64,000 bases of DNA from Alphaproteobacteria bacterium (lineage in GTDB: Bacteria > Pseudomonadota > Alphaproteobacteria > Rs-D84), in the NCBI GenBank assembly GCA_017427405.1, contig JAFRSV010000007.1, positions 5 through 64,004 on the forward strand. Direction: 5' to 3'. Position numbers and translations under genes: made by a program. Below, in pieces: positions 662 to 59,569 of this stretch. Positions within the stretch are counted from its first letter, which is position 1; each line of letters begins with the position of its first letter. A model generated the notes under the pieces. That model was not told the DNA's origin. It searched no databases and saw nothing but the letters and a program-made list of their open reading frames with translations.

Positions 662-3600
662 TTATTCGGGTACAGTCGTTGTTTCTGTTCCTGTAACAAC
701 AATCGCTAAGTCCACTTTTCTACAACTGGAATATTCGTCTCTTTTTTTGTTTTTGCATTCTGTATCGCCATGACCGGTGGCTACAGTGGCAATCTCAACA
801 TTTGATAGGACTGTGTTAAATTGTTTTTTTAAAAAATCTGTAACCATTTCTGCACGTGCCTGCGATAATTTGGAATTATTATCAATTTTTCCACCATATG
901 ATTCTGGTAAACTTCCGATGTTGTTTTCGTATTGTTGTTTTAACTTTGAAACCCATTTTGATTTTATTGGATCTGGGTCAGTATAACCGTCCGCAGTTAT
1001 ATTTATGCTTGTGATGGTATAAGTCTCTGATACGGTATTAATAATATCATTAGCGGCCTTGGTTAAAGCATTTTTCCCCGGTTCAGTTAATGTTATGTAA
1101 CCGCTATCAAAAGTACTACTGTCAAAAGTTTCATCGCTGGTCGTTACCTTCACAGTTGTGGTAACACTGGGTTTTTGTGGCTGTTCTTCCTCTGGTTCAA
1201 CTATTTCTACTATTGGTTCTTCTGGGGTTGGTATAAATATTTCTGGATATTCTTTTTCCAATCTAGTTTTAATAGTGTTTAATTTTTGCTTTAATTCAAT
1301 TGGCTTATGATTACGGTTAACAAAATAATTTCCGATGACACCCGTGGCAATACCACCGGCGGTAAGTAATGTTCCGGTTTGCAGGTTTTGCGCGACTTCG
1401 GCTTTTTGTGCGTTCCATTGCTCGGCGTCCGCGCCTTCGGGGTTCATTAACGCGCGCGAAAGTGATGTAAATCCGCCGCTTTGCCGTTCGGCGTTGGCGT
1501 ATTGATATAAACCCGTTTCGGCGCGGTCGTATAAAACCTCGCTCTCTATTCCTGGACGCAGGTTTAATGCGGTTTTAGTTGCCTTTAGTTTGTCCGCCAA
1601 TTGTTTATATTCCGCGTAGTATTTTGCAAGGTCATTTCCGCCTGGCAATGTTTCTTCCTTGCCAAGGTTAACCTGTTGGCCGTTGCCGTATTCACAGCCC
1701 ATTGTTGTGATGTATGCGGCCATTTGTTCTTCGGCCTTTTTGTCGGCCTTTTGTTCTGCGATTGCCTGGGCGGCTTTCATTGCGCCCTCGCCTGTTAGCA
1801 GTGTTGAACCGGCGGTTATGCCCTTGTTTTCCCAGCTCTGTGCATTGTCGCGTTCGTGTTTATATGCATTTTCGGTATCCCTGCGCCACGCGGCAGAGTC
1901 AAAAATTTTTTCAACCGTTTCTGTTCCAGCATATTTGCATTCAGCACGTTCGGGATATGACAAGACGGTCTTTCCATCGGTATCCAATTCAGCACCTTTG
2001 CGTATGTAGCCATACATGCATTTACAGATACTATATTCTTTGGCATTTTCTGGATTGTATTCAACCAAATGTTTATCGGCATCGCATATGCATTTTCCAT
2101 TTTCATATTTATCGCCACCACTCTTGGTGCATTCGTATTCTTCGGTGCCCGTTGGTGCCACCTGTTCGGAACTTTGGAATTCTGTGGAGATATCATCTGA
2201 ATCATAGTTAATCTCAGATTTTGGGCTGCACCCATCACTTTTTGCCATTGGGTTCGTGTAATCATAACCACTTTTGCAATTACAGAAATACCCGGTATCA
2301 TCCAATTCCATATTTAATTCTGTGTGACATGTGCATGTGTTATTTGTGCTTCCTTGCCATGTGCCACCAGTTGGACTACAACTATTAGCCCTATCTATTT
2401 CTCTTAGATCGTATCCGTATCCTTGTGCCTTGGTTTTTGTACCGGCAATGTACGCGCCGTCTTTTAATGTTTCGCAACCGGTCCATAATTTGTTATAATA
2501 TTTTTGGTTGGCGTTGTGAGTGCATTGGCATTCATAACCCACGGCTTCGGCGCCCTCTAATTTGGTACAATTACACTCTTGTTTTTCTTCATCCCATTCA
2601 CCCCAACTTCCCACGCATTGTTTTTTTGCGTATGACCATGTATCGGTCGGTTCATCGGTGTATCGAACTTCTATGTTTGGGTTGTTGATACAAAACAGTA
2701 GATATTTGCGGTCACCAACGAAAGCCGTCTGGATGGCGGGACATTTTGATTTGTCTAGAGATTTGGTTATCTGGCTGCCACAATTATCAAACACGTTGCC
2801 GTCAATGTACAATATATTTGTTTCTGTAATTGTATCTTTTTTTAATTCTTCACAGCTTGTGGGTTTCAGATCGCGTGAAAGTTTACAATTTATATCACCT
2901 GTATTTTTGCAGGTTATGATTAATTTGTCTGATGTGTTCATAATAAAGTTTTTGTCGGTTGCGGGGGCCGGCAAAGATGGGGTCGATTGGTTGGAATTAT
3001 TTGATTTGTTTTTTTGTAAAGTGATAGTTTGATTTTTTTGGTCTAAAAGTTGCCTAACCGTCTTTGTGACTGGGGTGTGACCCGGTGCCGATATTTTAAC
3101 TTCTAATTCTTTATTTGCATCGTTCAAACACAGTGCATAGTTACCGTTTTCTTTTTGTGTTGCAATATTGTTTGGTGTGGTTAAATCGGGGTATTTAATG
3201 GATGCGCTGGTGATTGCTTTATTATCTGTATCAACAATTTTAACAACTATATCGTTGGCGTGATCGCGGTTGCAAATACCGCTGTAGTAATCCCCGCAAG
3301 TGATGATACAAGTGTTTTTTGCGTCTTGGTCTTCTCGGTGTTTCATTTTACACCGATAAAATGTTTGTTCGCTACCAGAAGTATATTTAACAAGGTACAT
3401 GTACGTCTGTTCTTTGCTTGGTATAACAGGGTCCAGACCAACATTTTGTTGACGTGACCCCTTGCAGTCCGGCAAGTCGGTATCATCATCATTAACCTTG
3501 ACCCAGCCAGCATCTGTGCATCTGTACAGATAGCGATCTTTGCCCACCACTATGTCACCTTGGGTGCATTGTGCGTCGTTTGTCGTGAAGTCACCACATT

Positions 3601-3745
3601 GAAGGTATGCAGGATAGTTTGTAAAATGAAACCGGGATTTCAGATACTGGTTGCCACTGGGGACCGGCCCATAGATATGGTTACAGGCACCGAACGACGG
3701 GCCGTATACGCAAATGGCAAATATTGGAAATATGAACTTTTTCAT
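662..3745 (-). CDS. Large secreted Cys-rich protein with EGF-like units, Gly-zipper hydrophobic segment and C-terminal OmpA/MotB-like peptidoglycan-binding domain (1027 aa)
   Basis: ATG at 3745 and signal peptide MKKFIFPIFAICVYGPSFGA. Three CxCxxGY-type EGF-like units (YECQCTHN, FCNCKSGYDY, CKCMYGYIRKG). Hydrophobic segment LLTAGGIATGVIGNYFV followed by a Pro/Glu linker. C-terminal OmpA-like signature: FDSG..L, DGYTDP, LSQARAEMVTDFL, GHGD..C..CRKVDLAIV. Confidence 0.8.
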   Translation of the reverse strand: MKKFIFPIFAICVYGPSFGACNHIYGPVPSGNQYLKSRFHFTNYPAYLQCGDFTTNDAQCTQGDIVVGKDRYLYRCTDAGWVKVNDDDTDLPDCKGSRQQNVGLDPVIPSKEQTYMYLVKYTSGSEQTFYRCKMKHREDQDAKNTCIITCGDYYSGICNRDHANDIVVKIVDTDNKAITSASIKYPDLTTPNNIATQKENGNYALCLNDANKELEVKISAPGHTPVTKTVRQLLDQKNQTITLQKNKSNNSNQSTPSLPAPATDKNFIMNTSDKLIITCKNTGDINCKLSRDLKPTSCEELKKDTITETNILYIDGNVFDNCGSQITKSLDKSKCPAIQTAFVGDRKYLLFCINNPNIEVRYTDEPTDTWSYAKKQCVGSWGEWDEEKQECNCTKLEGAEAVGYECQCTHNANQKYYNKLWTGCETLKDGAYIAGTKTKAQGYGYDLREIDRANSCSPTGGTWQGSTNNTCTCHTELNMELDDTGYFCNCKSGYDYTNPMAKSDGCSPKSEINYDSDDISTEFQSSEQVAPTGTEEYECTKSGGDKYENGKCICDADKHLVEYNPENAKEYSICKCMYGYIRKGAELDTDGKTVLSYPERAECKYAGTETVEKIFDSAAWRRDTENAYKHERDNAQSWENKGITAGSTLLTGEGAMKAAQAIAEQKADKKAEEQMAAYITTMGCEYGNGQQVNLGKEETLPGGNDLAKYYAEYKQLADKLKATKTALNLRPGIESEVLYDRAETGLYQYANAERQSGGFTSLSRALMNPEGADAEQWNAQKAEVAQNLQTGTLLTAGGIATGVIGNYFVNRNHKPIELKQKLNTIKTRLEKEYPEIFIPTPEEPIVEIVEPEEEQPQKPSVTTTVKVTTSDETFDSSTFDSGYITLTEPGKNALTKAANDIINTVSETYTITSINITADGYTDPDPIKSKWVSKLKQQYENNIGSLPESYGGKIDNNSKLSQARAEMVTDFLKKQFNTVLSNVEIATVATGHGDTECKNKKRDEYSSCRKVDLAIVVTGTETTTVPE

Positions 3746-3768
3746 CTCTCTGGGGTCCCTTTTGCCCT

Positions 3769-3797
3769 ATTCTATCAAATTTTGAATTTTCGGGCAA
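3769..3797 (-). promoter_or_regulatory. Candidate sigma70-type promoter of the 1027-aa gene
   Basis: On the minus strand: TTGCCC (3797-3792), 17-nt spacer, TAGAAT (3774-3769), about 25 nt upstream of the ATG. Confidence 0.45.
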
Positions 3798-3804
3798 GGG
3801 GAAA

Positions 3805-3954
3805 TTAGTGGTTAGTGTTAGTGTCAGTGTTAGTGGGCGACACCCTCCGACCGTTCGGTCGGACCCCTCTGGCCAGAGGGGAACTTTGTATTCTGGAATA
3901 ACTGTGTAATTATGCGGTTATTCCAGAGCCCACTAACCACTTACACTAACACTA
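3805..3954. repeat. Composite palindromic intergenic element with GTTAGT-type inverted arms
   Basis: Left arm TTAGTGGTTAGTGTTAGTGTCAGTGTTAGTGGG (3805-3837) and right arm CCCACTAACCACTTACACTAACACTA (3929-3954) are inverted copies. They bracket three perfect hairpins (3846-3863, 3864-3881, 3893-3926). The right arm ends 2 nt from the argS stop codon. Confidence 0.85.
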
Positions 3955-3956
3955 TC

Positions 3957-5669
3957 TTACATTTCTGCTGGGATTTTTAGGCCCATAAGGTCAAGTGTTT
4001 TGCCCAAAACATCAACCGCAATTTTAATTAGTGCAAGGCGCATATTGCGTGTTTCCGTGTCAACATCTTCGCGCAAAATTGGGCAATTGTGATAGAATGT
4101 ATTTACCAATTGGCACACATCATACGCATAGTTCGCGACCAAATCCGTTGCGCGTGAATCAAACGCCGATTGCACCGTGCGGTCAAAGTCCAAAAGTTCC
4201 ATAACCAAATTCCTTTCGTCCGCGCCCATTATGGCCGTTTTCGGTGTGTCAAATTTTCCGGCGCGGCGCAAAACCGAATTTAATCGCACCGCGGTATAGA
4301 GTATGTATGGCCCGGTGCGCCCTTCGAACGAAGTGATTTGCGATGGTTCGAAAATATAATCCGAACGCAAATCGTGCGACAGGTCGTTAAACTTTAACGC
4401 CGCAAGTGCGATTTCGTCGATTGTTTCGTTGTCCAATTTTTTGCCGCTTTCGGCAACGCGATCGCGGACCGCCGTTTGCACCATTTCGATAATGTCGTTC
4501 AATCCCGCGGCGTTGCCATCGCGTGTCTTGAACGGTTTGCCGTCCGTGCCATTTATTGTGCCGTATCCAATGTGTTCCAATGCGGATTCCGGAAACATCC
4601 CAAGTAACTTTGCCACCCGGAATAATTGTTCAAAGTGCAATGATTGGCGGCTGTCGGTCAAATAAATTATATGGTCGGGATTATCCGTAATTTTCCGATA
4701 ATAAAGCGCCATTATATCCGTCGCATCATATGTGGATGCGCCGCGCGAATTACGAAACATGACCGGCGGCATTGGCTTGTTATCAGTATCGCGCCGAACG
4801 ACGACGATTTCCGCACCGTCGCTTTGTTGCAATAATTTTTTGTCACGCAATATCTTTTCAACCGGGTCCGCGTATTTTGCGGCGTTGCGTTCACCAAGGT
4901 TATTATCAAACGGTAGCATATTTAGTTTCTTGATAATTTCATCCATCGATTGCAATGATACCGGGATAAATACATTATAAAGTGCATTATATCCAGGATG
5001 CCCGTTTTGCAATTCGGCGGTTATTATTTGTGCGCGTTCCATGAATTTTTCATCCGTTTTGGCAAGTGCCGCTGCCGATGGGTAATATGTGTCTAACTCT
5101 GCGACCGGCATGGCGTATCCCGAATAATCCGCGGTTGGGTCAAAGTTTTCTTGGAAAAAAGGCCAATCCGGGTGTAGTTTTTCAATCCATGCGATAACCA
5201 TGCCCATCGAACGGCCCCAATCGCCCATGTGATTATATGAAATCATCTTGTGCCCGATTGCGCGCCCAAGTCGATACAATGTATCGCCCACAATTGATGT
5301 GCGCAGGTGCCCAATATGTAGCGATTTTGCCACATTATATGCGCCATAGTCCATATCGATTGTCATCGGTTTTGTGGCGCGTGTGATTTCGGCCGCGGTT
5401 TGCGCGGCGTTCCAAAGAAAATCATCGCGGATGCGCAGGTTGATAAACCCCGGCCCCGCGATTGATGCGTCGGATACAAAATCAAGTTCCTTTATCTTTG
5501 GTAAAAGTTCGGTTGCGATTTCGCGTGGATTCTTGCCCGCGACCCGTGCCATAACCATTGCGGCGTTTGTTGAAAAATCGCCAAAGTCACGGTTGCGCGG
5601 AATTTCCAGTTTTGCCGCAAACCCCAATTTTTCATTTAGTTTATCAGATACATATTTATACAAATTCAT
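3957..5669 (-). CDS. argS: Arginine--tRNA ligase
   Basis: 570 aa. Class-I HIGH motif (SLHIGHLRTS), conserved HMGDWG segment, C-terminal anticodon-binding region ending in ...PAEM. Confidence 0.95.
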   Translation of the reverse strand: MNLYKYVSDKLNEKLGFAAKLEIPRNRDFGDFSTNAAMVMARVAGKNPREIATELLPKIKELDFVSDASIAGPGFINLRIRDDFLWNAAQTAAEITRATKPMTIDMDYGAYNVAKSLHIGHLRTSIVGDTLYRLGRAIGHKMISYNHMGDWGRSMGMVIAWIEKLHPDWPFFQENFDPTADYSGYAMPVAELDTYYPSAAALAKTDEKFMERAQIITAELQNGHPGYNALYNVFIPVSLQSMDEIIKKLNMLPFDNNLGERNAAKYADPVEKILRDKKLLQQSDGAEIVVVRRDTDNKPMPPVMFRNSRGASTYDATDIMALYYRKITDNPDHIIYLTDSRQSLHFEQLFRVAKLLGMFPESALEHIGYGTINGTDGKPFKTRDGNAAGLNDIIEMVQTAVRDRVAESGKKLDNETIDEIALAALKFNDLSHDLRSDYIFEPSQITSFEGRTGPYILYTAVRLNSVLRRAGKFDTPKTAIMGADERNLVMELLDFDRTVQSAFDSRATDLVANYAYDVCQLVNTFYHNCPILREDVDTETRNMRLALIKIAVDVLGKTLDLMGLKIPAEM

Positions 5670-11626: not shown

Positions 11627-12385
11627 ATGGTGCGGTTCAATCATTTTACATCTGAAAATATCGGCCTTTCGGTTTTGGGGCATTTGGGGGCGGTGTGCGT
11701 GTTGGTCTTTATTGCGGGGGTTGTGATTGGCGAACGCGAACATTTTGTCGCGCCCGACCGGGTTCAGATTATGATGATTGATTTATCCCAGGTAAAAATT
11801 ACCGGCGAAGAATCCGTTTTATATAACACAACGGTGCCGGATAAAAAGGAAGAAAAAGAACCGGTAAAAGAACCGGAAATAAAGCCAACACCGGAACAAG
11901 ATGCCGCGGCAAAAACCGAACAAAAAATCGAAACACCGACCGTGATTTCCGAAGAAAAACCCGAAGAAAAGCAAGAAAATAAGCCCAAGGATGAAAAGCC
12001 CGACGACAAACCAGCGACAGTAAAAAAGACGGTTGTTCGTGTGAATCGGAATACGACATCGCTGCATACGGGATTGTCGGTTTCAATTATTGATGCGTTG
12101 CGGTATAAAATGACGCGATGTTGGGTGATTGATACATCGCGGCCCGATATTTCGGGGATTCGTGCGGTGGCGCATTTAACGATGCGGACAAACGGAACGG
12201 TCGCAAATGTGTGGTTTGAAGGGGCGTCGGCGGCGGAACGCGACCCGGCGTTTGCGTATGTGTTGGATACAATACGTAATGCAATAAACGCGTGCCAACC
12301 CTTGGACATGTTGCCGCGCGAAGAATACAAAATGTGGCGTGAGATTCAGCTTACTTTTTACCCCGCCCAAGGAACGGTTATGTAA
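11627..12385 (+). CDS. tolA: TolA-like protein (252 aa)
   Basis: N-terminal TM helix, central Lys/Glu/Pro-rich spacer (EKEPVKEPEIKPTPEQ...), C-terminal globular TonB/TolA-like domain. Follows tolR. Confidence 0.75.
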   Translation: MVRFNHFTSENIGLSVLGHLGAVCVLVFIAGVVIGEREHFVAPDRVQIMMIDLSQVKITGEESVLYNTTVPDKKEEKEPVKEPEIKPTPEQDAAAKTEQKIETPTVISEEKPEEKQENKPKDEKPDDKPATVKKTVVRVNRNTTSLHTGLSVSIIDALRYKMTRCWVIDTSRPDISGIRAVAHLTMRTNGTVANVWFEGASAAERDPAFAYVLDTIRNAINACQPLDMLPREEYKMWREIQLTFYPAQGTVM

Positions 12386-12430
12386 GTGTAAGTGTAAGTG
12401 TAAGTGTTAGTGTTAGTGTTAGTGTTAGTG
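12382..12430 (+). repeat. Hexamer microsatellite (GTAAGT)4(GTTAGT)4
   Basis: Eight perfect tandem hexamers. The tolA stop codon TAA (12383-12385) is the TAA of the first GTAAGT unit. Confidence 0.95.
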
Positions 12431-12565
12431 CGGGCGCGATGCGCCCGTTGTCTTTGTCATACCGCCGAAATGCGGTATTCTGTCGTCACATTTGAAATCA
12501 CCAGATACCGCTTTGCAGCGGTATGACGGCTTTACTGGCCACTAACACTGATTACTAACACTAAT
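12431..12565. repeat. Hairpin triplet plus inverted ACTAAC arm completing a composite palindromic element
   Basis: GC hairpin CGGGCGCGATGCGCCCG (12431-12447). Two hairpins share the stem ATACCGC/GCGGTAT (12459-12478, 12505-12524). Inverted arm CCACTAACACTGATTACTAACACTAAT ends near 12565. Same architecture as 3805-3954. Confidence 0.8.
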
Positions 12566-12710
12566 AAACTACCCCACCGGCTTTCGCCGGTCCCCCCCCT
12601 TCACACAGTGAAGGAAACTACCCCGTCCGCTTCGCGTCCACCCCTTCACACAGTGAAGGAAACTACCCCGTCCGCTTCGCGTCCACCCCTTCACACAGTG
12701 AAGGGGAACT
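12566..12710. repeat. 45-bp tandem repeat (about 3 copies)
   Basis: Unit CCCCTTCACACAGTGAAGGAAACTACCCCGTCCGCTTCGCGTCCA is identical at 12596-12640 and 12641-12685. A partial third copy runs from 12686 and a degenerate copy lies upstream (12566-12595). Each unit contains the 7-bp hairpin CCTTCAC-ACA-GTGAAGG. Confidence 0.9.
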
Positions 12711-12732
12711 AAAAATCGCCCCGATTGGGGCG
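12711..12732 (-). terminator. Rho-independent terminator of rnpB
   Basis: Minus-strand hairpin CGCCCC-AATC-GGGGCG followed by ATTTTT, a few nt after the predicted 3' end of RNase P RNA. Confidence 0.7.
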
Positions 12733-12737
12733 GATGC

Positions 12738-13070
12738 CGTGATAGCCGAATGATAAGCCGGATTCTGTTCCGCCCATATTCAGTGTTGTTCCGGCGCGTT
12801 CAACACCAAACACATGGGTGGCAGGCATAATTAATCTGTGCAATGTGTTACCACAAAGCATCAAGCCCTCTACCCGCCTCCGATTCGGGACAAATCATAG
12901 AGGCCTATTTGAAGTTGCTGCACACAGAGATTGCCCGTTTCACCCGGGTTAAACCCGTATCGTCACTGTTGCTCTAATCGTCAGATTGCTCTGCCCGGTA
13001 ATTGGCCGGTGTGCTGTCCCGCGCAGTCCGGACTTTCCTCCGCCACGGAAAAAGTCGCGACGGCTATGCC
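12738..13070 (-). ncRNA. rnpB: RNase P RNA, bacterial type A (about 333 nt; ends approximate)
   Basis: The reverse complement contains GGAGGAAAGTCCGGAC (CR-I), GCAACAG, GGGTGAAACGGG, CAAATAGG, GGGTAGAGGGCTTGA and ACAGAATCCGGCTTATC (CR-V). These are in the same order as in E. coli M1 RNA. P1 pairing ATAGCCG/CGGCTAT. Confidence 0.9.
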
Positions 13071-13088
13071 TTTATTCAACTATTCGTG

Positions 13089-33796: not shown

Positions 33797-33820
33797 AACC
33801 GGGCAAATGCCCGGTTTTTT
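33797..33820 (+). terminator. Rho-independent terminator of the giant ORF
   Basis: AACCGGGC-AAAT-GCCCGGTT followed by TTTTTT, 28 nt after the stop codon. Confidence 0.85.
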
Positions 33821-33863
33821 AGTGGTTTCTGAAATCAATCCACTTACACTGTCCACTAACACT
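33819..33863. repeat. Short member of the GTNAGT repeat family
   Basis: TTAGTGG (33819-33825) faces CCACTTACACTGTCCACTAACACT (33840-33863). The stop codon (TAG, 33856-33858 on the minus strand) of the 71-aa ORF lies inside the GTGTTAGTG motif. Confidence 0.7.
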
Positions 33864-34071
33864 TGGTTCCCATCGTGCGGGCGGATTTAAGTGCCGCGTG
33901 CAACGATTCACGCGCAATTTCATTTATGCGGCCCGAAAATGTGCGCATATTCATGGAATCGGCAAAGTTTTTTGTAAAAATCCCAGCAATATATTCAATT
34001 TGCGCCGGCGAAATCAGGAAAATATCACTGGTTATATCCCGGGAATCCAACTGTTTTATTGAATTTTTCAT
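33856..34071 (-). CDS. Small hypothetical protein (71 aa)
   Basis: ATG 34071 preceded by AGGGGAAAG. No signal peptide or recognisable motif. Divergent from secA. Confidence 0.45.
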   Translation of the reverse strand: MKNSIKQLDSRDITSDIFLISPAQIEYIAGIFTKNFADSMNMRTFSGRINEIARESLHAALKSARTMGTKC

Positions 34072-44727: not shown

Positions 44728-47700
44728 ATGTTAAAGGGCTATAAAATTTTGACCAGTTTTTGCGTTATCTGCGCGACACTTTATGGTGGCGCGTATGGCG
44801 CGGCGAGTGTTCGGGGCGGTGCGACATCACGTGCCGGTTCGATACGGACACTTGGTGCGGGAACAACCGCATCGGTCAAGACAACGACAGCCAGGACGCA
44901 ACCCACCACGACCGCGGCCAATGCAAATACTGAAAGCACGGAATCCGTGGGCGGCATGCGTATGTCGCACGCAACGGGGCTTGGTGGGACAAAGTTACCG
45001 GGCAAGGTATCGGGAACATCAACATCATCGACGGCGTCGAACCAAAATGTTGCGGAACTTCGCCAGGCAATCGAACAACTGCGGAACGACTATGATGCGT
45101 TGGGGGAACAATATAACAATTTGCTGGGCGATGTATCGAATGTTTCCGACACGGCTCAGGTTGCGCATGAAACCGCGACGAATAATACAAATACACTTAC
45201 CGTTGTGCGCAGTGACCTTAGTGTCGCGAAATCTGATATCGAAGATTTAAAGGCGACCGGCGGTTTTGATGAAGAACGCGTGCAGGAGGCGTTGGATACA
45301 ACATTGGCCCAGCGGAATTATGCAACGCGCGGTGAATTGGCCGCAACCGATGCGGTGGCGCGTGGCGCGGTCCAGGTTGCAGATTTGTCGCAAACGTTGA
45401 ACGCATTAAATATCGCCGACAAAGATTATGTGGCAAGTCGCACCCAAGGTGTCGTGAACGATTCGCTTAATATCACATTGGAAAATTATTATACGAAAAA
45501 GCAGGTTAACGATGCCATTGATGTGGCAAAGGTCGGCATGGTTGATAAAAACTATGTTGATAATCAAATTGATGGTTTGGCGGCCAAAACCTATGTCGAT
45601 AATCGCGTGGCCAGTATTCAAACCGGTGTTAGCGAAGGCGCCGTCCAAGGAATTATCAATAATTCGATTGATACACGTTTGGGAAATTATTATACCAAGG
45701 GCGATATTGATAATGCCATTGTTGATGCAATTGGTGCCGCCAAAGATGGTATGGCCGACCGGGATTATGTTGATAACCAGGTTCGTGATTTGGCATCAAC
45801 GGAATATGTTAATGAAAAGGTTGCCGAAATAGAAAGTGGCGTTGATGCGGGCACACTTTACAATATCCTTGAAACCCGCGGGTATAAAACTAGCGCAGAG
45901 GTTCAGGGTATAGTGAACGATTCGATTAATAATACCGTGGCGAATTATTACACCAAGGGTCAGGTTGATAATGCGATTAAGGTCGCGAAAAACGGTATGG
46001 CCGATAGAAATTATGTTGATAATCAAATTGATGGTTTGGCACCGAAAAATTGGGTCAATACGGTTGTGGATGCCAAGGTTAATGCCCTGCCCTTGGGACT
46101 TGATCAAAACGCGGTCCAGGCCATGGTTGAAGGATATGGGTATAAAGATGAAGCCGGTGTTCAAGAAATGATAAACGCGTCCGGGCATGTAAAAACAAGC
46201 GAACTTCCGGATTTGATTAAACAATGGGCCCCAGGTGCGGAAATACAATATGCGGATGGGAAATTGTATTTTGTGGATAAGGATGGAAATGATCGTGTTG
46301 TTGATATCCGTGGGCTTGATGGCCAAGATGGTGCGCAGGTTGAAATTCAGCAAAACGATGGATGGATTCAATGGCATTATGAAGGTGATACAGAGTGGAA
46401 TAATTTGGTTGCTATGTCTGATTTGAAAGGTGCGGATGGAAAGTCTGTTGATATTGGCGTTATTTCAATGTCTGGAATTAAGAATGCCTTGGTATGGAAA
46501 AAAGAAGGCGAAACAAATTCAGATTGGAGATTTTTATACAATTTGGACGATATAAATGGTATCGATGGCTGTGGTGTTCGGGCGGAAAAAACATCTACTG
46601 AAATTGGAACAACGGTGACACTGTTAAAAGATTGTCCAGGGCAACAAGGCCACGGTGATGTCTTGGTTTCGTTTGATGTTTTAAATGGTGCTAAAGGAAC
46701 CGTTGATGATCAACAGATTATAGATGCATTAGAATCCAATAGTGATTTTATGCAATTAAGGCAGTTAAAAAATAAGGTGAATGATCCATCAACAGGATTG
46801 GAAAGTACATATAATTTGGTCGTTGACTTGTATGATAGAGTTGATCATGAAAAAACTGGTCTTGGTGCGACAAATACATTGGCGAATGATGCCTGGGACA
46901 AAGTTAAAGATTTGGATTATGGTGTTACGGCAAAAACTTATGTTAACAGCAGAATTGGCGAATTGGGTATTAATGGTGTTACGCATAGAGAGTTTGAAAG
47001 TGTTGCCGCCAAAATTGGTGACGTTGGCTATACAAATACAGTAAAGGATTATATTGATACCGCGATTGCCGGGGTCAATACGAATATCAAAGTAAGACAG
47101 GGTCGTGATGGTTATACATATATCTGTAAGACCGGAAATAATTGTACGGGTGAACCCGATATATATTCTGACGAATGGGCACGGATTTCTGTGGATGTGT
47201 CGGGTTATCTTAAAAAGGGTGATGCGGATGGGTATTATGCATCCATTTCCACCGAAGGTGTAGCAAATACGGCACAAACCACTGCGACCGAGGCAAAAAC
47301 CAGGGCGAATGATGCGTGGGCTAAGTTAGAAGATTTGGGCAACAATGTAACAGTAAAGAGTTACGTTGATGACTATGTTTCGAATATGGTGGGTAACCTT
47401 GGAATTGATTATATAACGGGTGAAAAATATACTGTTCGTGGTAAAATAGGTAATTTCCCGGGCACCGTTCAGGACTATATTGATACCAAAATCGCCAGCG
47501 TTAGCACAAATGTTCGTGTAGAGGTTGGTTGGGATGGTGGTACGTATATTTGTAAAAAGGGAAGCAGTTGCCAAACGCAAGCCGGCCCGTACAATACTGA
47601 TGAATGGGCGCGGGTAACCGTTGATATGTCGGATTATCTTACCGAAGATGATACAGATAAACTTTATGCGCCGATTTCGACTGTTGCCACCGCGAACGAG

Positions 47701-50697
47701 GCAAAGACCGCCGCCAACACTGCGCAACAAACCGCAAGCCAGGCACAGTCAACCGCGACCGCCGCACAGTCAACGGCGAACGATGCGTGGGGTAAGTTGA
47801 GTGGTCTTAGTGGGACGGTAAAGGACTATGTTGATGATAAGGTTGGGGCTACGGGGTTGGCTATTCGGGTTGAGACTGGTACTGACGGTTATACTTATAT
47901 TTGTACTGCAAGTAACTCGGACTGTCGTGATGGGCCGTCACAAAGTTCTTCTTATTGGAAGAAAATAGATTTTACTATACCTAGTGAATACCTTACGGAA
48001 ACCGAAGGTAACGCTTGGTATGCGCCAAAGGCGGAATATGCGCTGAAATCTGATATCGGTACATTGGGGGGCAGTTTCTCGAGTGTTGCGGACAAAATTG
48101 GGCTTAATAATAATAGTGATTGGACTAATTCGAATAAATCGGTGAAACAATATGTTGATGATAAGTTCAGCAGTATTAGCACAGATATTCAGGTAGAAAC
48201 CGGTACGGATGGGTTTACATATATTTGTAAGACCGGAAGTGGTTGTACGGGCGAACCGAGTCAAAATCCAAGTCAGTGGACTAAGGTTAATGTAGATTTG
48301 GGGACGTTGGGGACGAATCCGTCGTCTGGTCAGGTCTATAATGTCGCTCAGAAAATCGGTTTGACTGATGCTGCAAATGTAAATAAAACGGTTGTTGGGT
48401 ATATCAGTGAGCAGATTGGTTCGTTGGGGTCTTATTATGATACTAGTACATACACATATAAACCCTATGATGTAAAAACTTATATGCAGGCAAATTATGT
48501 TCCGCTTGCAAAACTTGGGGACGATATTAAGAATTCCGAACAAACTGTGGCGGCGTATATTGGGGGTAAGATCGGTGCCCTAGGAAATTATTATGATGCT
48601 GGTACATCTGGTTATGTGCCTTATGCCAGTGTAAAACAATATGTTGATAGTAATTTCGCATTAAAAAGCACTATTGGTGATTTGGGGGCATCTTATACCA
48701 CCGTTGCACAAAAAATAGGACTTACTGATAGTAATGCAAGCAAGACGGTAAAGCAATATGTTGATGAGGCTATCGGGAGTTTGGGGGGGAGTCATACAAG
48801 TGTTGCGGGGAAACTTGGACCTGCAATTGTCAATGGCAGTCAAACCGTGGCTGATTATATCACAGCACAACTTTCCACAGTTAGTACGAGTGTAATAGTC
48901 AGACCAAGTTCTAATGGTAATGATACGTATATTTGCACAGGTACGAATTGTACAACACATTACAATGATCCGGAAAATGATGGTGGCAATTGGACGAAAC
49001 TTAATGTTGATTTGACAGCAATAAATACGATACTTTCTGGGTTTGGAAGTGGTGATGATAAAATACCGACAGTAAAGGGTTATGTTGACGATAAGATCGG
49101 CACACTTGGTAAAATAGATTCTGCGACCAATGCGACCAGTGTTGCGGTAAAATTAGGCTCTGAGATTACCAGTGCAGAAAAAACAGTGGCGCAATATATC
49201 AATGATAAAATTGGTGATATGGGTGGGTATAATAACGGGGTGTATAATGTTTATTATAATGTTGCAAGCAAGATTGGTGATATAGGATCAACCCAAACCG
49301 TAAAGGGGTATGTTGATAATGCGATTAGTGGGTTGTCGAGTACTTATGCGGCAAAGAGTACGGAAGATACGGCGAATAATGCGTGGGATCGGGTAAAGAA
49401 TTTAGGCAAGGATGTGAATGGTGATGATTATACAACTGTTGCGGGGCGGCTTGGGTTTGGTACCGATAACAATACTAAAACTGTAAAGCAATATATTGAC
49501 GATAAGGTTGCGGATGTAAAACCGACTATTATGACGGAAACATATCAGGGAACAACGTATATCTGTTCGTCTGGTAATTGTACGAATCATGCACCAAATA
49601 CTGGTTGGGAAGAGTTGAGTGTTGATTTGTCTGCTTTGGATGACATAGAAGCGATACTTGACGGGTTTGGTGGAGAGGATGAACCGGAAAAAGTAAAGCA
49701 ATATGTGGATAATAAATTTGGTAATCTTGGCACGTACGTAAATGATAATGGTCAGACGCGTTCGTATTCCGTGGAGAATAAACTTGGTCTTCCGAGTGAT
49801 TATGCAAACAAGACGGTGACAAAATATATTGTCGATCGGCTTGGGTTCACAGACGACGATGCCAATAAAACCGTGGCGCAATATGTTGCGGAACACGCGG
49901 CAAGTGGTGGTGTACAGGTACAAACCGTTAGTGGGACAACATATATTTGTAGCGAGAATTGCGACGGTGTGGGTACCCCACCGTGTGCGGATGGTACGTA
50001 TCCGTCCACGTGTGGTTGGCAGAAGTTAGAGGTGAATTTGAACGGTTATGCCACAGAGCAATATGTTGATGATGCGATTGGTACGCTAGGTGGCGATTAT
50101 ACGAATGTTGGTGACAAGATTAATATTAATAGTGGAACGGTAAAATCCTATGTTGATGCGGTTGATAATAAAATTGGGAGTTTGGGATCTCGCGAGGTTG
50201 ATGGTGAGCAGAAACCGTATACCGTTGAAACAAAAATTGGTGGCATACCGGCCGTACAAACAATCAAAGAGTATATTGATAACAATATGCCGAATATTGA
50301 TGTACGACCAGGGACCGGCGATGAGAATAAGAACAAATTGTATATTTGCACAAAGCCGTCTTGTGATACAGAAAATATTCCTGGGGGGACCGATTCTGGT
50401 TGGATCGAACTTGATATTGCAAGTGCGATAAATTTAAGCCTTTATTTGACAAAAACTGATGCGGAGGATATGTACCTTAAACAAAATGGTATTAAATTGA
50501 AACGCGAAGGCAAGGATATCAAAATATGGGGTGGCGGTATTGCGCAAGGTAATGCTTACAAAGTTGCCGATGTTGAAGATTTGATGTGCGCATCGTATAG
50601 GATGGAAGAAATTGGGTCTGATGATCCGGCTTATCAGGCGGATAAAACATCTTTCCGGTTGGTTTGTGAAACAGTTAGCGAAGACGACAATGATTAA
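44728..50697 (+). CDS. Secreted fibre protein with tail-fibre-like repeats (1989 aa)
   Basis: RBS AAGGGAAG. Signal peptide MLKGYKILTSFCVICATLYGGAYG. Coiled-coil-like region. Three copies of NYYTK..(V/I)DNAI...DYVDNQ. Segment IQWHYEGDTEWNNLVAMSDLKGADG. Eight modules containing TYIC...C. Recurrent VK.YVD motifs. Confidence 0.85.
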   Translation: MLKGYKILTSFCVICATLYGGAYGAASVRGGATSRAGSIRTLGAGTTASVKTTTARTQPTTTAANANTESTESVGGMRMSHATGLGGTKLPGKVSGTSTSSTASNQNVAELRQAIEQLRNDYDALGEQYNNLLGDVSNVSDTAQVAHETATNNTNTLTVVRSDLSVAKSDIEDLKATGGFDEERVQEALDTTLAQRNYATRGELAATDAVARGAVQVADLSQTLNALNIADKDYVASRTQGVVNDSLNITLENYYTKKQVNDAIDVAKVGMVDKNYVDNQIDGLAAKTYVDNRVASIQTGVSEGAVQGIINNSIDTRLGNYYTKGDIDNAIVDAIGAAKDGMADRDYVDNQVRDLASTEYVNEKVAEIESGVDAGTLYNILETRGYKTSAEVQGIVNDSINNTVANYYTKGQVDNAIKVAKNGMADRNYVDNQIDGLAPKNWVNTVVDAKVNALPLGLDQNAVQAMVEGYGYKDEAGVQEMINASGHVKTSELPDLIKQWAPGAEIQYADGKLYFVDKDGNDRVVDIRGLDGQDGAQVEIQQNDGWIQWHYEGDTEWNNLVAMSDLKGADGKSVDIGVISMSGIKNALVWKKEGETNSDWRFLYNLDDINGIDGCGVRAEKTSTEIGTTVTLLKDCPGQQGHGDVLVSFDVLNGAKGTVDDQQIIDALESNSDFMQLRQLKNKVNDPSTGLESTYNLVVDLYDRVDHEKTGLGATNTLANDAWDKVKDLDYGVTAKTYVNSRIGELGINGVTHREFESVAAKIGDVGYTNTVKDYIDTAIAGVNTNIKVRQGRDGYTYICKTGNNCTGEPDIYSDEWARISVDVSGYLKKGDADGYYASISTEGVANTAQTTATEAKTRANDAWAKLEDLGNNVTVKSYVDDYVSNMVGNLGIDYITGEKYTVRGKIGNFPGTVQDYIDTKIASVSTNVRVEVGWDGGTYICKKGSSCQTQAGPYNTDEWARVTVDMSDYLTEDDTDKLYAPISTVATANEAKTAANTAQQTASQAQSTATAAQSTANDAWGKLSGLSGTVKDYVDDKVGATGLAIRVETGTDGYTYICTASNSDCRDGPSQSSSYWKKIDFTIPSEYLTETEGNAWYAPKAEYALKSDIGTLGGSFSSVADKIGLNNNSDWTNSNKSVKQYVDDKFSSISTDIQVETGTDGFTYICKTGSGCTGEPSQNPSQWTKVNVDLGTLGTNPSSGQVYNVAQKIGLTDAANVNKTVVGYISEQIGSLGSYYDTSTYTYKPYDVKTYMQANYVPLAKLGDDIKNSEQTVAAYIGGKIGALGNYYDAGTSGYVPYASVKQYVDSNFALKSTIGDLGASYTTVAQKIGLTDSNASKTVKQYVDEAIGSLGGSHTSVAGKLGPAIVNGSQTVADYITAQLSTVSTSVIVRPSSNGNDTYICTGTNCTTHYNDPENDGGNWTKLNVDLTAINTILSGFGSGDDKIPTVKGYVDDKIGTLGKIDSATNATSVAVKLGSEITSAEKTVAQYINDKIGDMGGYNNGVYNVYYNVASKIGDIGSTQTVKGYVDNAISGLSSTYAAKSTEDTANNAWDRVKNLGKDVNGDDYTTVAGRLGFGTDNNTKTVKQYIDDKVADVKPTIMTETYQGTTYICSSGNCTNHAPNTGWEELSVDLSALDDIEAILDGFGGEDEPEKVKQYVDNKFGNLGTYVNDNGQTRSYSVENKLGLPSDYANKTVTKYIVDRLGFTDDDANKTVAQYVAEHAASGGVQVQTVSGTTYICSENCDGVGTPPCADGTYPSTCGWQKLEVNLNGYATEQYVDDAIGTLGGDYTNVGDKININSGTVKSYVDAVDNKIGSLGSREVDGEQKPYTVETKIGGIPAVQTIKEYIDNNMPNIDVRPGTGDENKNKLYICTKPSCDTENIPGGTDSGWIELDIASAINLSLYLTKTDAEDMYLKQNGIKLKREGKDIKIWGGGIAQGNAYKVADVEDLMCASYRMEEIGSDDPAYQADKTSFRLVCETVSEDDND

Positions 50698-50712: not shown

Positions 50713-53700
50713 ATGAGAAAGAATATGATTTTGGGTATAATTGGTTTTGCTTTGGCATTGGTTTCGGGTGGACAGGTGTTTGCCGCATTGGGACCAAATG
50801 ATATTTCCATGGGAACATTTGCAATTCCCCTGCCCGGTTGTGCACCAGAAGTGACTATTGGCGACAAGGATACAAGTACCGGTTGCTATACCATGACGAT
50901 ACAAAGTAAAACACTTCAAAATGGTGTTTGCAGTAGCAGTGAAATATCCCCAACCACAAAACAGGTCTGTGATGGCAAGGATGGTGTCGGTGGCGAAGGG
51001 TGTAGTTCAAAAACCAATGTTACTGGTCCGGATAGTAACGGGTGCTATACGGTTACATTTCAGAAAATGAAGGTAGAAAATGAAGAATGTGTAGAGGATG
51101 GAGAGCCGTTAACTTATACAACTTGTGATGGGGCGACCGAAGTTGTAGATGAAAGGTATGTGCCGTATCCGCAGTCGATGACTTATGATACGGGAAACGA
51201 TGTTCAAATTGGACACGAGGGGTATCGTAGGTTAGAGATAAAGTTTAAGGGGGACGAAAATTCGCGGGTGCTGAAATTCCCGGATCTTTGTGAAGAAGGC
51301 GAGGATGTGGAAGGTCAGAGAATCAAGACATGTATCGCTCAGGGGAATGCCACAAGCTATCCTAATGCTGACGGCAGTCATAGTCTATATCTAACGGACG
51401 ATAAGTATGCTTTTGTTATTGGAGAATCGGAAAGTGGGTTCCCAAGATATGAATATACCGCCCCAAGGTCGGTGAGTGGTTCTGTGGTGGCAAAGGGTTT
51501 CACGCAAAAGGTGTACGCGTATACGGATGGGCGCAGGGTTACTGAGACCGGTGCGACAGATGAGTGTAAGGAATATGCGAAACCTAATGATCGGAGTGCG
51601 CGTGTTACAAAGTGCACCGTTCAAAGTTATCAGTATCCTTCGAATCTGTTGTCAACATGGGTGCCGGGTACTACAGAATATTGTTTGGGTAATCATCAAA
51701 GCGATTGTAGTCAATACACCTTGCTGGTTGGGGCGGTCGATGCGTGTGCGGGGTTGACATCGTCTGATGATGCATGGGAAACGAGAGTCGTTCATTCGGA
51801 ATCAGAATATGTTGAACATGTTTATAATACAGGTTGTACGACAAATTGCACTGGAACCGTTGGATATAAATTAATCAAGGAAGAGATGTGCAATGGGGAT
51901 GTCAATGAAAGTACGAATTTGGATCCGTGTGAGTATGCGACACTGCCTGTGGGTGTTACGTGTGGATCTGGCTATGCATATCAAAGTTGCACACCGCAAG
52001 TGACTGCCTCTGGTTCAACGGCGAGCGCGTATTATGGATGTTTTCCGGATAATTGGAGCGATTTTGCACACAAGAATGATATAGTGCCGGCAAATTTTGC
52101 ATCAGATGGCACTAATCTGTATTGGTGTCAAATTCAAGATTGTGAAAATACGTCTGCTTGCTGGATTGGTGTCAATAAGGCAAATGGGCCAAACCCAAGT
52201 GGGCAATCCGATGGTACTAATTGTTGGGGCGTTGTGTCTATAGATGGACTTCAGGGTGACGCGGGCCCGGGATGTTCGTTTGCCTATTATAACGATAAAT
52301 GGCAGGTGTGTTGTTTGCCGGTCGATTCATCGGGTAATATTAATGTGAATGGTCAGTGGGATTGTAAAGAAGTCACAGATTCCAGCATTTTAAACCAGTT
52401 AAATAATTGGATGTGCAAACCAACGTATACCACAAAATATATAAACAAGAAATCTGATGGAACTTATGAATACAAACCAACGGACACCAATAATAGAACC
52501 GCTGCAACGGTTGGTGTTAGGACAACAATAACAAATTGTGACGGGACAAATGGTGGTGATGTTGATGTGTTTGATGGTCCGGCAGGGGATGATTATGATC
52601 CGTGTGATGGTTTGACGGCGGGAAGTCAGGCGGCACAAACAACGATACTAAATCAAACAAAAGTGTATCGTTCACATCAATATTCAAACAATCACTATAG
52701 CCCTGCGCGTGGGTATTATGAAACGACGGTTACATATTGCGAAGGTAGCGCAACAACCTATACACCAGCGGATGAATGCACGCCTGTGGCGGATGCAAGG
52801 TTGGCACGTAGCACGGGTCAGAGTTGTGCCGACAACCAGGTATTAAAGCGTTGCACGCCACAAGAGGGAACGCAAACACCGTATTTTATATGTGATACAA
52901 CCGAAGTAAGCGGTTATCCAAAGAAAAAGTATTTTGTGCCCACAATTGAAAATGGGAAAATTACCAAAGAGGGTTATACCGCATGGGTGCATAAGTATAC
53001 CAGTACTGGGACAGAAATAGAAGGCGACTTGGCAGATAAAGACGAATGTCACACGGTTTATAAGGTGCAACATTCGAGGTCTGGGGATAATAATGAAATA
53101 TTAACGGCGACGACGCAAACCACACAGAAATGTACTGTGCAAAGTTATACATATCCTAACCCTTCTTCGCCGTGGACAGTGGGCGCGACATATTGCAAGA
53201 ATACAAATGCAAGTGGTAGTTGCACTGGATATAGTGACAGTATTTCGGATTCAGAAACATCGACATTGAAATATAGAGCGCCACTTTTGTCTTCGAGTGA
53301 TTCTGGAGTTCCGGTTAGTGCGGGGTATACGTACTATGATGTGACGGATGGAGATGATGTAAGTGTTCGCGAAATAATAGGCGTAAAAGATGAGTGTTGG
53401 CCGGTTTATAGGACATCAAGTGTTGCGACGACTTATCCGGAAATGACCTGGAAATGCGAGGTTCAATACCCCGGTGATACAACCTCTGGTGCGACATATA
53501 TAACCGGTTACAAATATTGTCTTAATATTACAAACGAAGTGTGTGGAAATTATCAAACAACGCCACCGCAAGAGTTGGATCAATGTAATGGCGGCACTTC
53601 TGCGACAGCGGTTAAAAAGGTGGTGAGTCGGACATACACACGCACCACGGGTAGCCAAGGGGCTTTGACATCGGTGTACAAGATGTGTAACGATGATGAT

Positions 53701-56716: not shown

Positions 56717-56748
56717 AATATAAAGAAGATAAATAGAGAGGATAAAAA

Positions 56749-59478: not shown

Positions 59479-59540
59479 TGTTAGTCCCTTTGGTATGATA
59501 TATTTCCTATTGTCGTTTTTATACAATAATTTTTTTTGTT

Positions 59541-59569
59541 TTGCAATCAAAAAAGCCTTGTGTTATTAT
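59541..59569 (+). promoter_or_regulatory. Candidate gpmI promoter
   Basis: TTGCAA (59541-59546), 17-nt spacer ending in TGT, TATTAT (59564-59569), 24 nt upstream of ATG 59593. Confidence 0.5.

Follow-up and report, generated by a model that had tools for sequence, protein, structure and literature searches.

Background

Several kinds of short extragenic repeat in bacteria resemble the element considered here. MITEs such as Correia/NEMIS, ERIC, RUP and Nezha are 60-300 bp long and intergenic with inverted ends, are often terminators or RNase III substrates and show presence/absence polymorphism. The STRR of cyanobacteria are heptamer arrays, and the intervening sequences (IVS) of 23S rRNA are excised by RNase III. 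The GTAG- and CGTC-tagged REPs, the BIMEs and the REPINs are extragenic palindromes associated with RAYTs (PMC3733652, PMC2817692, PMC3116915), the REPINs having been described in PMC3116915. GTAG-tagged REPs are found downstream of genes and as inverted dimers, and the flanking ORF often takes its TAG stop from their termini (PMC3733652). Direct repeats of the heptamer TAACTGA are found in Beggiatoaceae, Cyanobacteria and Bacteroidetes, mostly as sets just upstream of start codons (PMC4679880). The IVS is presented in PMC4990558 as a selfish element carrying an S23p/PF05635 ORF.

The window analysed here is the whole stretch of 64,000 nt, and the element at 12382-12565 within it is probably a member of an abundant, lineage-specific mosaic repeat family of the REP/BIME/REPIN type in uncultured ruminant-gut Alphaproteobacteria. 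With tandem repeats for arms it is then an unusual form of the REP/BIME-type extragenic repeats already known, and not a system of a new kind. Like REPs, BIMEs and REPINs, the elements are high-copy extragenic GC-rich palindromes in mosaic clusters and lie mainly after genes, where neighbouring ORFs converge or point the same way; inverted dimers are predicted to fold into larger hairpins, termini often give a TAG stop, and CGTC-tagged hairpins like those of the tagged REPs occur among the interior cassettes. Against this likeness, the tag is a reiterated TAGTG and not a strict GTAG, repeated 3 to 18 times as a tandem array of 6/7-nt units that makes up the hairpin arms, the central GC palindromes are diverse and swappable, and a RAYT was not found in the window or in the ~1.9 Mb scanned. 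Like the MITEs, the elements measure 60-300 bp, lie between genes, have inverted ends and show presence/absence polymorphism, but they have no conserved interior, fixed terminal sequence or demonstrable target duplication, and their arms are tandem repeats of variable length. Oriented intergenic tandem arrays of 6-7-nt units, stops in three frames, unit-number indels between strains and a patchy cross-phylum distribution are shared with the TAACTGA and STRR arrays; the TAACTGA sets, however, are direct repeats (in BOGUAY immediately upstream of starts), whereas the arrays here begin at stops and form inverted pairs around hairpins. A further likeness, to the IVS, is a PF05635 gene bracketed by inverted arrays in three loci (L138, L213 and L129), much as an IVS ORF lies between stem-forming repeats, but these copies adjoin lepA and are not in rRNA, and most elements are without an ORF.

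A literature search by sequence string returned nothing relevant and no description of the (G)T[T/A]AGTG array family was found, which agrees in part with the original prediction that this is not a described element, although gene-end palindromes that supply a TAG are already described for the GTAG-tagged REPs (PMC3733652). The comparison with MITEs and REPs made in the original prediction stands for the palindromic units; they are not classical MITEs, as their interiors are unrelated, fixed ends are missing and native terminators persist.

Repeat loci in the window

Arrays of (G)T[T/A]AGTG units, in which 6-mers and 7-mers are mixed around an invariant AGTG core, are carried by five loci in the window. 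The sequence GTWAGTGTWAGT was matched 19 times with at most one mismatch against 0.60 expected, and none of 100 shuffles got to 19. All five loci named in the original prediction are present at or near the positions it gave, and the repeats form a genuine family, enriched in the window and present in related genomes. Mixed arrays are indeed stop-dense, not in two of three frames as had been thought but in all three, owing to the mixture of 6- and 7-mers around AGTG.

At the tolA/rnpB locus (12382-13083) the GT-rich left arm, (GTAAGT)4(GTTAGT)4G, occupies 12382-12430 on the plus strand. The TAA of a tolA/TonB-like gene is the first TAA of the (GTAAGT)4 tract (12383-12385), as claimed, and three more TAA codons follow in frame within the array. 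Next on the plus strand are a terminator-like GC hairpin CGGGCGCGATGCGCCCG with a T-rich tail (12431-12447), for which pattern matching predicts a stem at 12430-12448 and the tail TGTCTTTGTC, and an interior cassette (12459-12524) of two ATACCGC...GCGGTAT hairpins (12459-12478 and 12505-12524), which L201 and L166 have as well, but at different gene ends. The right arm CCACTAACACTGATTACTAACACTAAT (12539-12565) is inverted, its GT-rich strand being the minus strand; it pairs with the arm at 12382-12430 and lies downstream of rnpB in the sense direction of that gene. A 45-bp perfect tandem repeat of 2.4 copies (12596-12704, unstranded) is a further mosaic module, the unit of which reappears adjoining arrays in L111 and L237. 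It is followed on the minus strand by the rnpB terminator (12717-12732) and by the RNase P RNA gene rnpB itself (12738-13083; Rfam), convergent with tolA. This gene had been missed in the earlier examination. At the gathering threshold Rfam placed no family over the elements in the window, only rnpB and a tRNA being matched.

The locus at argS (3804-3959) begins with a GT-rich arm ATTAGTGGTTAGTGTTAGTGTCAGTGTTAGTG (3804-3835, plus strand), which points at the start of a 1027-aa gene and not at a stop. Its interior (3847-3927, plus strand) is a cassette of three hairpins, CCGACCGTTCGGTCGG, CCCCTCTGGCCAGAGGGG and TCTGGAATAAC...GTTATTCCAGA, kept in at least 12 other loci. The right arm, TAA-GATAGTGTTAGTGTAAGTGGTTAGTGG on the minus strand (3930-3956), comes directly after the argS stop (3957-3959); the argS TAA is followed by GATAGTG. 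Related-strain DNA contigs aligned to 3400-4300 matched in the flanks up to 3804, the arrays and modules being multi-copy, and yielded no full alternative alleles; BLAST of the argS element against a plasmid collection gave no match.

A small element at 33819-33866 (minus strand) consists of a single TTAGTGG unit after the terminator of a giant gene (33819-33825, plus strand), a 14-nt interior and a minus-strand arm (33840-33866). The arm contains the TAG (33856-33858) of a 71-aa ORF (33856-34071, minus strand), which ends in the TAG of GTGTTAGTG. At gpmI there is a solo array, G-TTAGTG-TAAGTG-TTAGTG (61056-61074, plus strand), and the 3' end of the gene, TTA GTG TAA (61057-61065), places its last two codons (Leu, Val) and its TAA inside the array. 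A native bidirectional terminator AAAATCCCGCATGCGCGGGATTTTTTTT, recognised by inspection at 61075-61102, is also present in relatives without the array. At rplY the TAA (63328-63330) abuts the TTAGTGG of an array (A)TTAGTG GTTAGTG TAAGTG ATAAGTG TAAGTG TTAGTG (63330-63368, plus strand), which runs into a terminator-like GC hairpin CGGGCGCGATTGCGCCCG (63369-63386) with a T-run (63369-63394, plus strand); pattern matching predicts an 11-pair stem at 63365-63390 with the tail TTTTACTTGA. The hairpins after the arrays at tolA (12431-12447) and rplY (63369-63386) are nearly identical, as had been noticed, and both score as terminator-like. Features of intrinsic (Rho-independent) terminators, a GC stem-loop and a T-run, are thus seen by pattern match at 12430-12448, 63365-63390 and 61075-61102. 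The stops of gpmI, the 71-aa ORF, rplY and argS all proved to be placed as described, which with tolA accounts for the five named genes; sense orientation at a stop in every case does not hold, since the arm at 3804-3835 faces a gene start.

Position and orientation in related genomes

A survey that took in ~120 related contigs from gut metagenomes and syntenic loci from MAGs, in which array edges were scored against ORFs of at least 100 aa, bore out the proposed sense orientation and anchoring at stops. An array had an ORF ending in the sense direction at its 5' edge in 67 cases and one ending at its 3' edge in 6 (p=4e-14), and among arrays not selected by the search pattern there were 20 sense stops against 3 antisense stops. 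Arrays began a median of 0 nt from the stop, whereas gene starts lay at a median of 63-186 nt from arrays, and only 7 of 199 arrays were located within ORFs. The modal junction was NNN-TAG-TGG-TTAGTG and TAG was the stop in 47/75 of the array-abutting genes compared with 112/563 genes overall; in genes with a TGA stop the array comes after the stop. An apparent excess of in-frame TAG stops in the first unit (27/67) was not upheld in the pattern-free arrays, with 6/20 in the first unit and 7 in the second. Of the convergent regions 36% had arrays, as against 15% of the tandem and 14% of the divergent ones. The same genomes also have numerous gene ends that lack an array, and in 12 regions arms face gene starts or are sited in divergent regions. 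The AGTG core was constant across the surveyed loci with spacers of 2-3 nt that vary, arrays having from 3 to 18 units. The same architecture was seen in the 120 metagenome contigs and in the related MAG loci L007, L073, L080, L111, L108 and L060.

Palindromic organisation and cassettes

The presence of hairpins after arrays and of palindromic, MITE/REP-like units was well supported, with 44 array pairs convergent, 4 divergent and 13 tandem; solo arms made up 111/199. Full elements are predicted to fold strongly into long hairpins (-83.4 and -75.6 kcal/mol, z ~-7.9), the inner hairpins of which score as terminators by pattern match. At least six unrelated types of cassette lie between paired arrays. 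These include GC terminator hairpins, CGTC-tagged REP-like hairpins (CCGTCACG..., CGTCATACCGC... and GCCGTCATACCGC) and one with a PF05635 gene, bracketed by inverted arrays in L138, L213 and L129, where the copies adjoin lepA; rRNA was not found in the fetched loci, including as a setting for IVS-like arrays. GC hairpins of 14-25 nt recur next to arrays, both in the window and at over 100 loci, and in 85% of cases the hairpin is adjoined by a TTAGTG unit and not by GTAG. Arm complementarity was 0.738 in true pairs against 0.743 in permuted pairs and arm lengths were correlated at -0.05. The arms of one element are therefore no more alike than those of different elements, and there is no sign of copying as a unit; hairpin-templated copying and selection for arm complementarity are rejected on the same values. 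A fixed terminal motif at the outer ends was absent from 66 pattern-free arrays, the ends of which fade into degenerate units, and appears only in arrays picked by the search pattern itself.

Variation among relatives

Array length at one gene end differs by whole units among close relatives. Between the gpmI stop and the conserved native hairpin orthologues have 2 to 22 nt of units, the outgroup L250 has zero units, and in L247 a CGTC-tagged hairpin is inserted between the stop and the native hairpin. In the orthologous series at rplY an array-hairpin-array exactly fills the interval that separates the stop from the dnaK promoter region; native terminators persist between or adjoining arrays at both gpmI and rplY. 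Synteny comparison placed an array at the same tolA stop in L111 as in the window, with a different interior. One cassette is at tolA in the window and at the 71-aa ORF in L201, the flanks being 92-98% identical, and L201 has ~240 nt at the site of the window element 33819-33866. Filled and empty sites were found in L208 and L158, and between array-bearing genomes and sister clades, ~83 kb of syntenic sequence from a GC-37% sister clade and L250 containing no arrays. The sole empty/filled pair compared for target duplication was imprecise.

The idea that stop-codon capture had altered C-termini fails on orthologous gene ends. The GpmI terminus MTGK[S/A]L[V/I]* is constant in nearly all of 120 homologues, ArgS ends in ...PAEM, this Met being the usual C-terminus of ArgS, and orthologous ends differ solely at the stop, in TAA-T-TAGTGG against TAG-TGG; remodelling of C-termini is thereby rejected.

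Distribution and mobility

No ORF matched in a motif scan for RAYTs (HxH...Y..NP) over ~1.9 Mb of fetched loci, the 64-kb window contained no RAYT or other transposase that could be found, and no parent IS was seen in the fetched loci. Similar stop-anchored arrays are found in groundwater Nitrospinota MAGs and in a GC-67% MAG, which suggests something beyond one lineage's selfish repeat; in Nitrospinota the arrays themselves make the terminator stem, followed by a T-run. Pure (GTTAGT)n and (GTAAGT)n tracts are present in many phyla. Tracts of GT[AT]AGT in unrelated genomes lay inside ORFs (48) or elsewhere (43) and almost never at stops, which excludes stop anchoring as a general property of such microsatellites, as outside the special lineages they are mostly within ORFs.

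Origin of the elements

It is possible, though doubtful, that a dedicated system, spread horizontally, recognises the arrays and works through a ssDNA enzyme (HUH/RAYT-like or other) or at the RNA level. An enzyme would install cassettes precisely at stop-codon/terminator junctions, while in the RNA-level version an RNA-binding protein or RNase III would process IVS-like cassettes, some with a PF05635 protein. Either version would explain why gut Alphaproteobacteria, groundwater Nitrospinota and the high-GC MAG all have stop-anchored arrays that share one unit and have inverted partners. The Nitrospinota arrays, as an independent occurrence in the terminator stem, also suit a rather unlikely reading in which a 3'-UTR/terminator module is selected at the RNA level and its spread is secondary. 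The GU-rich, C-free array would then be a three-frame stop and a spacer or stem extension of the terminator, and the inverted arm would create an extended double-stranded stem open to RNase III, as in the IVS of rRNA, or the AGUG core a platform for an RNA-binding protein. The strict sense polarity and stop anchoring, the recurrence of arrays at the same gene ends in different species, the fixed AGTG core between spacers of 2-3 nt that vary, which a homogeneous product of slippage would not show, and the bracketing of a gene for PF05635 (the 23S rRNA IVS protein) all favour such a module. Yet arrays are gained, lost and resized among close relatives without apparent consequence, many gene ends in the same genomes have none, arms face gene starts or sit in divergent regions in 12 regions and the two arms of an element do not covary.

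Classical MITEs, with arrays as TIRs of reiterated transposase-binding units in a non-autonomous, IS630/mariner-like DDE transposon that inserts at TA, are distinctly unlikely. Insertion into the TA of TAA or TAG would join TA to GTGG and so give TAG, and the modal junction of NNN-TA followed by GTGGTTAGTG with its surplus of TAG stops, the position of arrays after the stop in TGA-stop genes, the 44 inverted pairs to 4, the filled and empty sites (L208 against L158, sister clades) and the recurrence of one cassette at different loci all fit. The junctions fit a TA duplication too, but TA is part of the unit, so that duplication is indistinguishable from unit. Moreover, the interiors are unrelated and without a common parent sequence, outer ends in pattern-free arrays have no fixed terminal sequence, gpmI and rplY keep native terminators between or adjoining arrays, solo arms are frequent (111/199) and a transposase was not seen in the window or by motif scan of ~1.9 Mb. 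Ordinary microsatellites, slippage-prone hexamer tracts of chance origin tolerated only outside genes, are very improbable; unit number does vary at orthologous sites and pure tracts do occur in many phyla, but the units here are a heterogeneous 6/7-mer mix and the arrays have common non-periodic starts such as ATTAGTGGTTAGTG. This explanation is already largely refuted by the orientation (67 to 6), the pairing around hairpins (44 to 4) and the positions of tracts in unrelated genomes, mostly in ORFs (48) or elsewhere (43) and almost never at stops. Hardly credible at all is a DNA-level signal (for uptake or segregation, or a Chi-like site) sited incidentally in terminators. The inverted DUS/USS pairs of Neisseria and Haemophilus form terminators downstream of genes, a likeness in its favour, and AAGTGCGG at array-hairpin junctions resembles the Haemophilus USS core. 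For an uptake signal one copy would be enough, however, whereas an array here has 3 to 18 units; genes often contain USS sites, but arrays are almost absent from coding DNA (7/199), and their orientation tracks genes and not the chromosome, both strands being used within 64 kb.

Under the REP/BIME/REPIN-type reading the full element would be a long imperfect hairpin with a 5' arm of tandem (G)T[T/A]AGTG, a complementary 3' arm of CACT[A/T]A(C) and a centre of one or more swappable GC-rich stem-loop cassettes, usually with an intrinsic-terminator-like hairpin; partial elements of one arm and a hairpin are common. Elements occupy the space from the stop codon to the next constrained signal, the outermost unit abutting the stop or supplying it, from TAGTG(G) in the case of TAG and from TAAGTG in that of TAA. 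Slippage may lengthen and shorten arrays, which could extend as far as the stop codon, since a stop is part of the unit, and cassettes and arrays may move by recombination among arrays and hairpins or by a HUH/RAYT-like or other enzyme. The likely effect would be that translation stops whichever frame is read and that genes gain a terminator, or a longer one, at their 3' ends.

If this reading is right, the family is a clean natural example of extragenic palindromes with stop-encoding tandem micro-repeat arms and joins REP/REPIN-type hairpins with oriented short tandem repeats (STRR, TAACTGA), which are usually treated apart. At the gpmI, rplY and tolA ends, orthologous series allow the gain and resizing of arrays and the exchange of cassettes to be traced among close relatives. 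Should a specific enzyme or RNA-binding protein recognise the arrays, it would be a new way to target the boundary between translation end and transcription terminator. The arrays can shift called stop codons in rumen/gut Alphaproteobacteria MAGs and will break their short-read assemblies; Logan contigs from three metatranscriptome runs and one of unknown type break at the array on rplY.

Repeat loci in the window

The window (GC 44.8%) derives from an uncultured bacterium of gut metagenomes; related sequence occurs in sheep and goat gut runs, with 26-40% of sampled words in common, and related metagenome-assembled genomes (MAGs) are labelled Alphaproteobacteria or proteobacterium. The five predicted repeat loci were all found, at 3804-3956, 12382-12565, 33819-33866, 61056-61074 and 63330-63368, and the dimer pattern GTWAGTGTWAGT with at most one mismatch gave 19 matches in the window against 0.60 expected from shuffles. 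The predicted gene names were also borne out: argS (3957-5669, minus strand), tolQ, tolR and a TolA/TonB-like gene ending at 12385, secA, gpmI (ending at 61065) and rplY/L25 (ending at 63330). A tRNA is located at 540-613 on the minus strand. The repeat unit had been given as GTAAGT/GTTAGT; the family is real, but it mixes 7-mer and 6-mer units of the form (G)T[T/A]AGTG, in which the AGTG core never varies and the spacers are GTT (250), TT (218), TA (103) and ATT (33).

Each reported association with a stop codon could be reproduced. The tolA TAA falls within the first GTAAGT, the terminal TTA GTG TAA of gpmI is contained in the array, a 71-aa ORF (33856-34071, minus strand) ends in the TAG of GTGTTAGTG, TTAGTGG directly adjoins the rplY TAA, and GATAGTG comes after that of argS. 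That every array lies at the stop of its upstream gene was an overstatement, as the arm at 3804-3835 faces a gene start instead. The element at 12382-12565 sits between convergent tolA and rnpB, because Rfam places the class A RNase P RNA gene at 12738-13083 on the minus strand (182.8 bits; terminator at 12717-12732, minus strand), and its right arm is likewise in sense relative to rnpB, the gene facing it downstream. A perfect 45-bp tandem repeat (2.4 copies, 12596-12704, unit AAACTACCCCGTCCGCTTCGCGTCCACCCCTTCACACAGTGAAGG) separates the element from the rnpB terminator; since the unit also adjoins arrays in two related loci, L111 and L237, it is another mosaic module.

Distribution and placement of arrays

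When one genome per species was scanned for four perfect hexamer units, many phyla yielded plain microsatellites. Among these matches only MAGs of gut Alphaproteobacteria/'proteobacterium' (L007, L073, L080, L111, L108 and L060) shared the architecture of the window, in which a heterogeneous array opens non-periodically, for instance with ATTAGTGGTTAGTG, and runs straight into a GC hairpin. A metagenome scan with TAGTGGTTAGTGTWAGTG recovered at least 120 contigs, almost all of 40-50% GC and with the same architecture.

Placement was surveyed in 118 loci (671 kb) containing 199 arrays with three or more units, only 7 of which lay within ORFs. For 103 arrays the 5' neighbour was the end of a same-strand gene, with a median distance of 0 from stop to array start, and 63 of these began between -12 and +9 nt from the stop; no comparable pile-up occurred on the 3' side (medians 107 and 186 nt). 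By a stricter count a sense ORF of at least 100 aa ended at the 5' edge 67 times and an opposite-strand ORF at the 3' edge 6 times (p=4e-14), and arrays lacking the search pattern gave 20 against 3 (p=5e-4). The original prediction had named random orientation and position as the result that would count against it; in the related loci both are non-random, and that objection therefore fails. The existence of a stop-anchored array family is confirmed, and its interpretation as a whole is partly supported. The commonest junction was NNN-TAG-TGG-TTAGTG, and TAG was the stop of 47/75 genes abutting arrays as against 112/563 genes overall. Arrays were present in 36% of convergent, 15% of tandem and 14% of divergent intergenic regions.

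Protein ends and orthologous sites

The suggestion that arrays had remodelled protein C-termini did not hold, the GpmI end MTGK[S/A]L[V/I] being present in nearly all of 120 homologues. The TTA GTG TAA of the window is the native Leu-Val-stop, its codons coinciding with array units, and relatives encode the same end as CTG/TTG GTT TAG. ArgS ends in ...PAEM. Orthologues differing as TAA-T-TAGTGG versus TAG-TGG are of equal protein length. The gpmI ORF as listed begins with TTG (region 59536-59592); almost all homologues are of 490 aa, so the real start is probably 19 codons further downstream.

Syntenic loci retrieved through GpmI homologues, and hence without selection for arrays, form a graded series. 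No arrays were found in ~83 kb of distinct sequence from a GC-37% clade (GpmI 68-81% identical) and the outgroup L250 (79%), L242 (84%) retained only a remnant, TAGTGTTAGTA, and L246-L249 (82-94%) carried arrays at both gpmI and rplY ends. A counterpart of the gpmI terminator AAAATCCCGC...GCGGGATTTT can be recognised in L250 as AAAAATAACCCGCAATCGCGGGTTT; the units between stop and hairpin number 0 there and span 2, 7, 9, 15, 21 or 22 nt among relatives, and the L247 array is interrupted by a CGTC-tagged hairpin insertion. At rplY, array, hairpin and inverted array exactly fill the interval between the stop and TTTTTATTCCTATGGTCTTGAAAT, a conserved sequence upstream of dnaK, where outgroups have TAA, a ~20-30 nt spacer and their own terminator. 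L111, ~91% identical to the window in the tolQRA region, also has an array at the tolA stop (ATG TAG TGG TTAGTG...) but with a different interior. L201 (flanks 92-98% identical) has ~240 nt, made up of array and 'tolA' cassette, at a site where the window has 39 nt. Between close relatives, then, arrays gain or lose whole units and cassettes turn up at differing sites.

Anatomy of the elements

Paired arrays were predominantly convergent, a GT-rich array, a centre and an AC-rich array (44 pairs, with 4 divergent and 13 tandem). The centres are mutually unrelated, swappable cassettes: single GC terminator hairpins; a TCTGGAAT...ATTCCAGA hairpin with AAAGTTCCCCTCTAGAGAGGGG, seen in the argS element (3804-3956) and shared by at least 12 loci; paired ATACCGC hairpins, in the tolA element (12382-12565), L201 and L166; TCCCAC...GTGGGA; a CGTC-tagged CCGTCACG...CGTGACGG hairpin; and, at three loci, a complete gene for a PF05635 (23S rRNA intervening-sequence) protein. 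The two full window elements are predicted to fold with long array-built stems around multi-branch hairpins (-83.4 and -75.6 kcal/mol, z -7.9 each), and the inner hairpins at 12430-12448 and 63365-63390 match the intrinsic-terminator pattern. The arms are generic, those of the same element being no closer than those of different elements (similarity 0.738 versus 0.743), and their lengths are uncorrelated. A fixed outer terminal sequence was absent among arrays not selected by the search pattern.

The PF05635 genes, which are bAvd-like, lie between inverted arrays in L138 (1481-1887), L213 (214-677) and L129 (2235-2642). Their C-terminus runs through the AC strand of one array (...TLTTNTNH-stop), and that array adjoins the start codon of lepA in L138 and the start of another gene in L213; no obvious Shine-Dalgarno sequence was seen there.

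Nature of the repeat family

On the evidence, the family is best read as a lineage-specific set of mosaic palindromic repeats, REP/BIME/REPIN-like, with arms made of tandem micro-repeats; its mode of spread and any function are inferred. As is typical of REPs, the elements follow genes, in gaps between convergent or unidirectional ORFs, pair as inverted dimers folding into larger hairpins, and occur in mosaic clusters. REPINs have been described (PMC3116915), the termini of tagged REPs are known to supply TAG stops (PMC3733652), and the alphaproteobacterial CGTC tag is present on some interior cassettes. Unlike described REPs, however, the arms are built from a reiterated TAGTG-like unit, the centres are diverse, and no RAYT, the enzyme tied to tagged REPs, was found in the window or the fetched loci.

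A classical MITE targeting TA would account for the junctions of TA with GTGG, but is disfavoured by interiors unrelated to one another, fuzzy element ends, frequent solo arms and native terminators still present beside arrays. Plain microsatellites were excluded by array polarity, heterogeneous units and comparison with other genomes, in which comparable tracts lay mostly within ORFs (48) or at other positions (43) and hardly ever at stops. A selected role at the RNA level is a candidate, whether as a three-frame stop, an extension of the terminator stem, an RNase III substrate or a platform for a protein recognising the AGUG core, and is made more interesting by stop-anchored hairpins and T-runs after real genes in Nitrospinota.

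Arrays outside the gut clade

In groundwater MAGs of Nitrospinota (L061, L074, L075, L082, L090, L116, L047 and L053) the stops of real genes are followed immediately by (TAAGTG)n and (CACTTR)n around an AT-rich loop, with a T-run behind them. The genes, named by eye from their translations, are an ispB-like gene of 381 aa, a sigma-54 regulator/LpxC fusion of 754 aa and fliP of 261 aa. The same unit and stop anchoring thus occur in an unrelated phylum. A MAG of GC ~0.67 labelled Clostridia (SRP263991_co7_839; L004, L020, L032, L034, L065, L066, L098 and L109) has recurring CGAACTC-(TTAGTG)4-5...CGAACT after ORF ends, low-GC arrays that contrast sharply with their very GC-rich surroundings. Metagenome contigs L124, L141, L156 and L212 (GC 0.58-0.66) carry GGTTAGTG/GCTAGTG arrays beside CCCTCTCC...GGGAGAGGG-type hairpins, which suggests that the array type is more widespread than the gut clade; ORFs of 150-210 aa terminate there within the first array unit.

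Large ORFs

The window also contains a giant ORF (13220-33769, plus strand, 6849 aa), in whose first 4000 aa the sole Pfam match is the Listeria-Bacteroides repeat (Flg_new), and a later series of very large ORFs (1989, 1414, 575 and 752 aa; 44728-50697, 50713-54957 and 54989-59007) without a significant Pfam domain. Giant ORFs occur near the same region in relatives (6326 aa in L249 and 3057 aa in L248).
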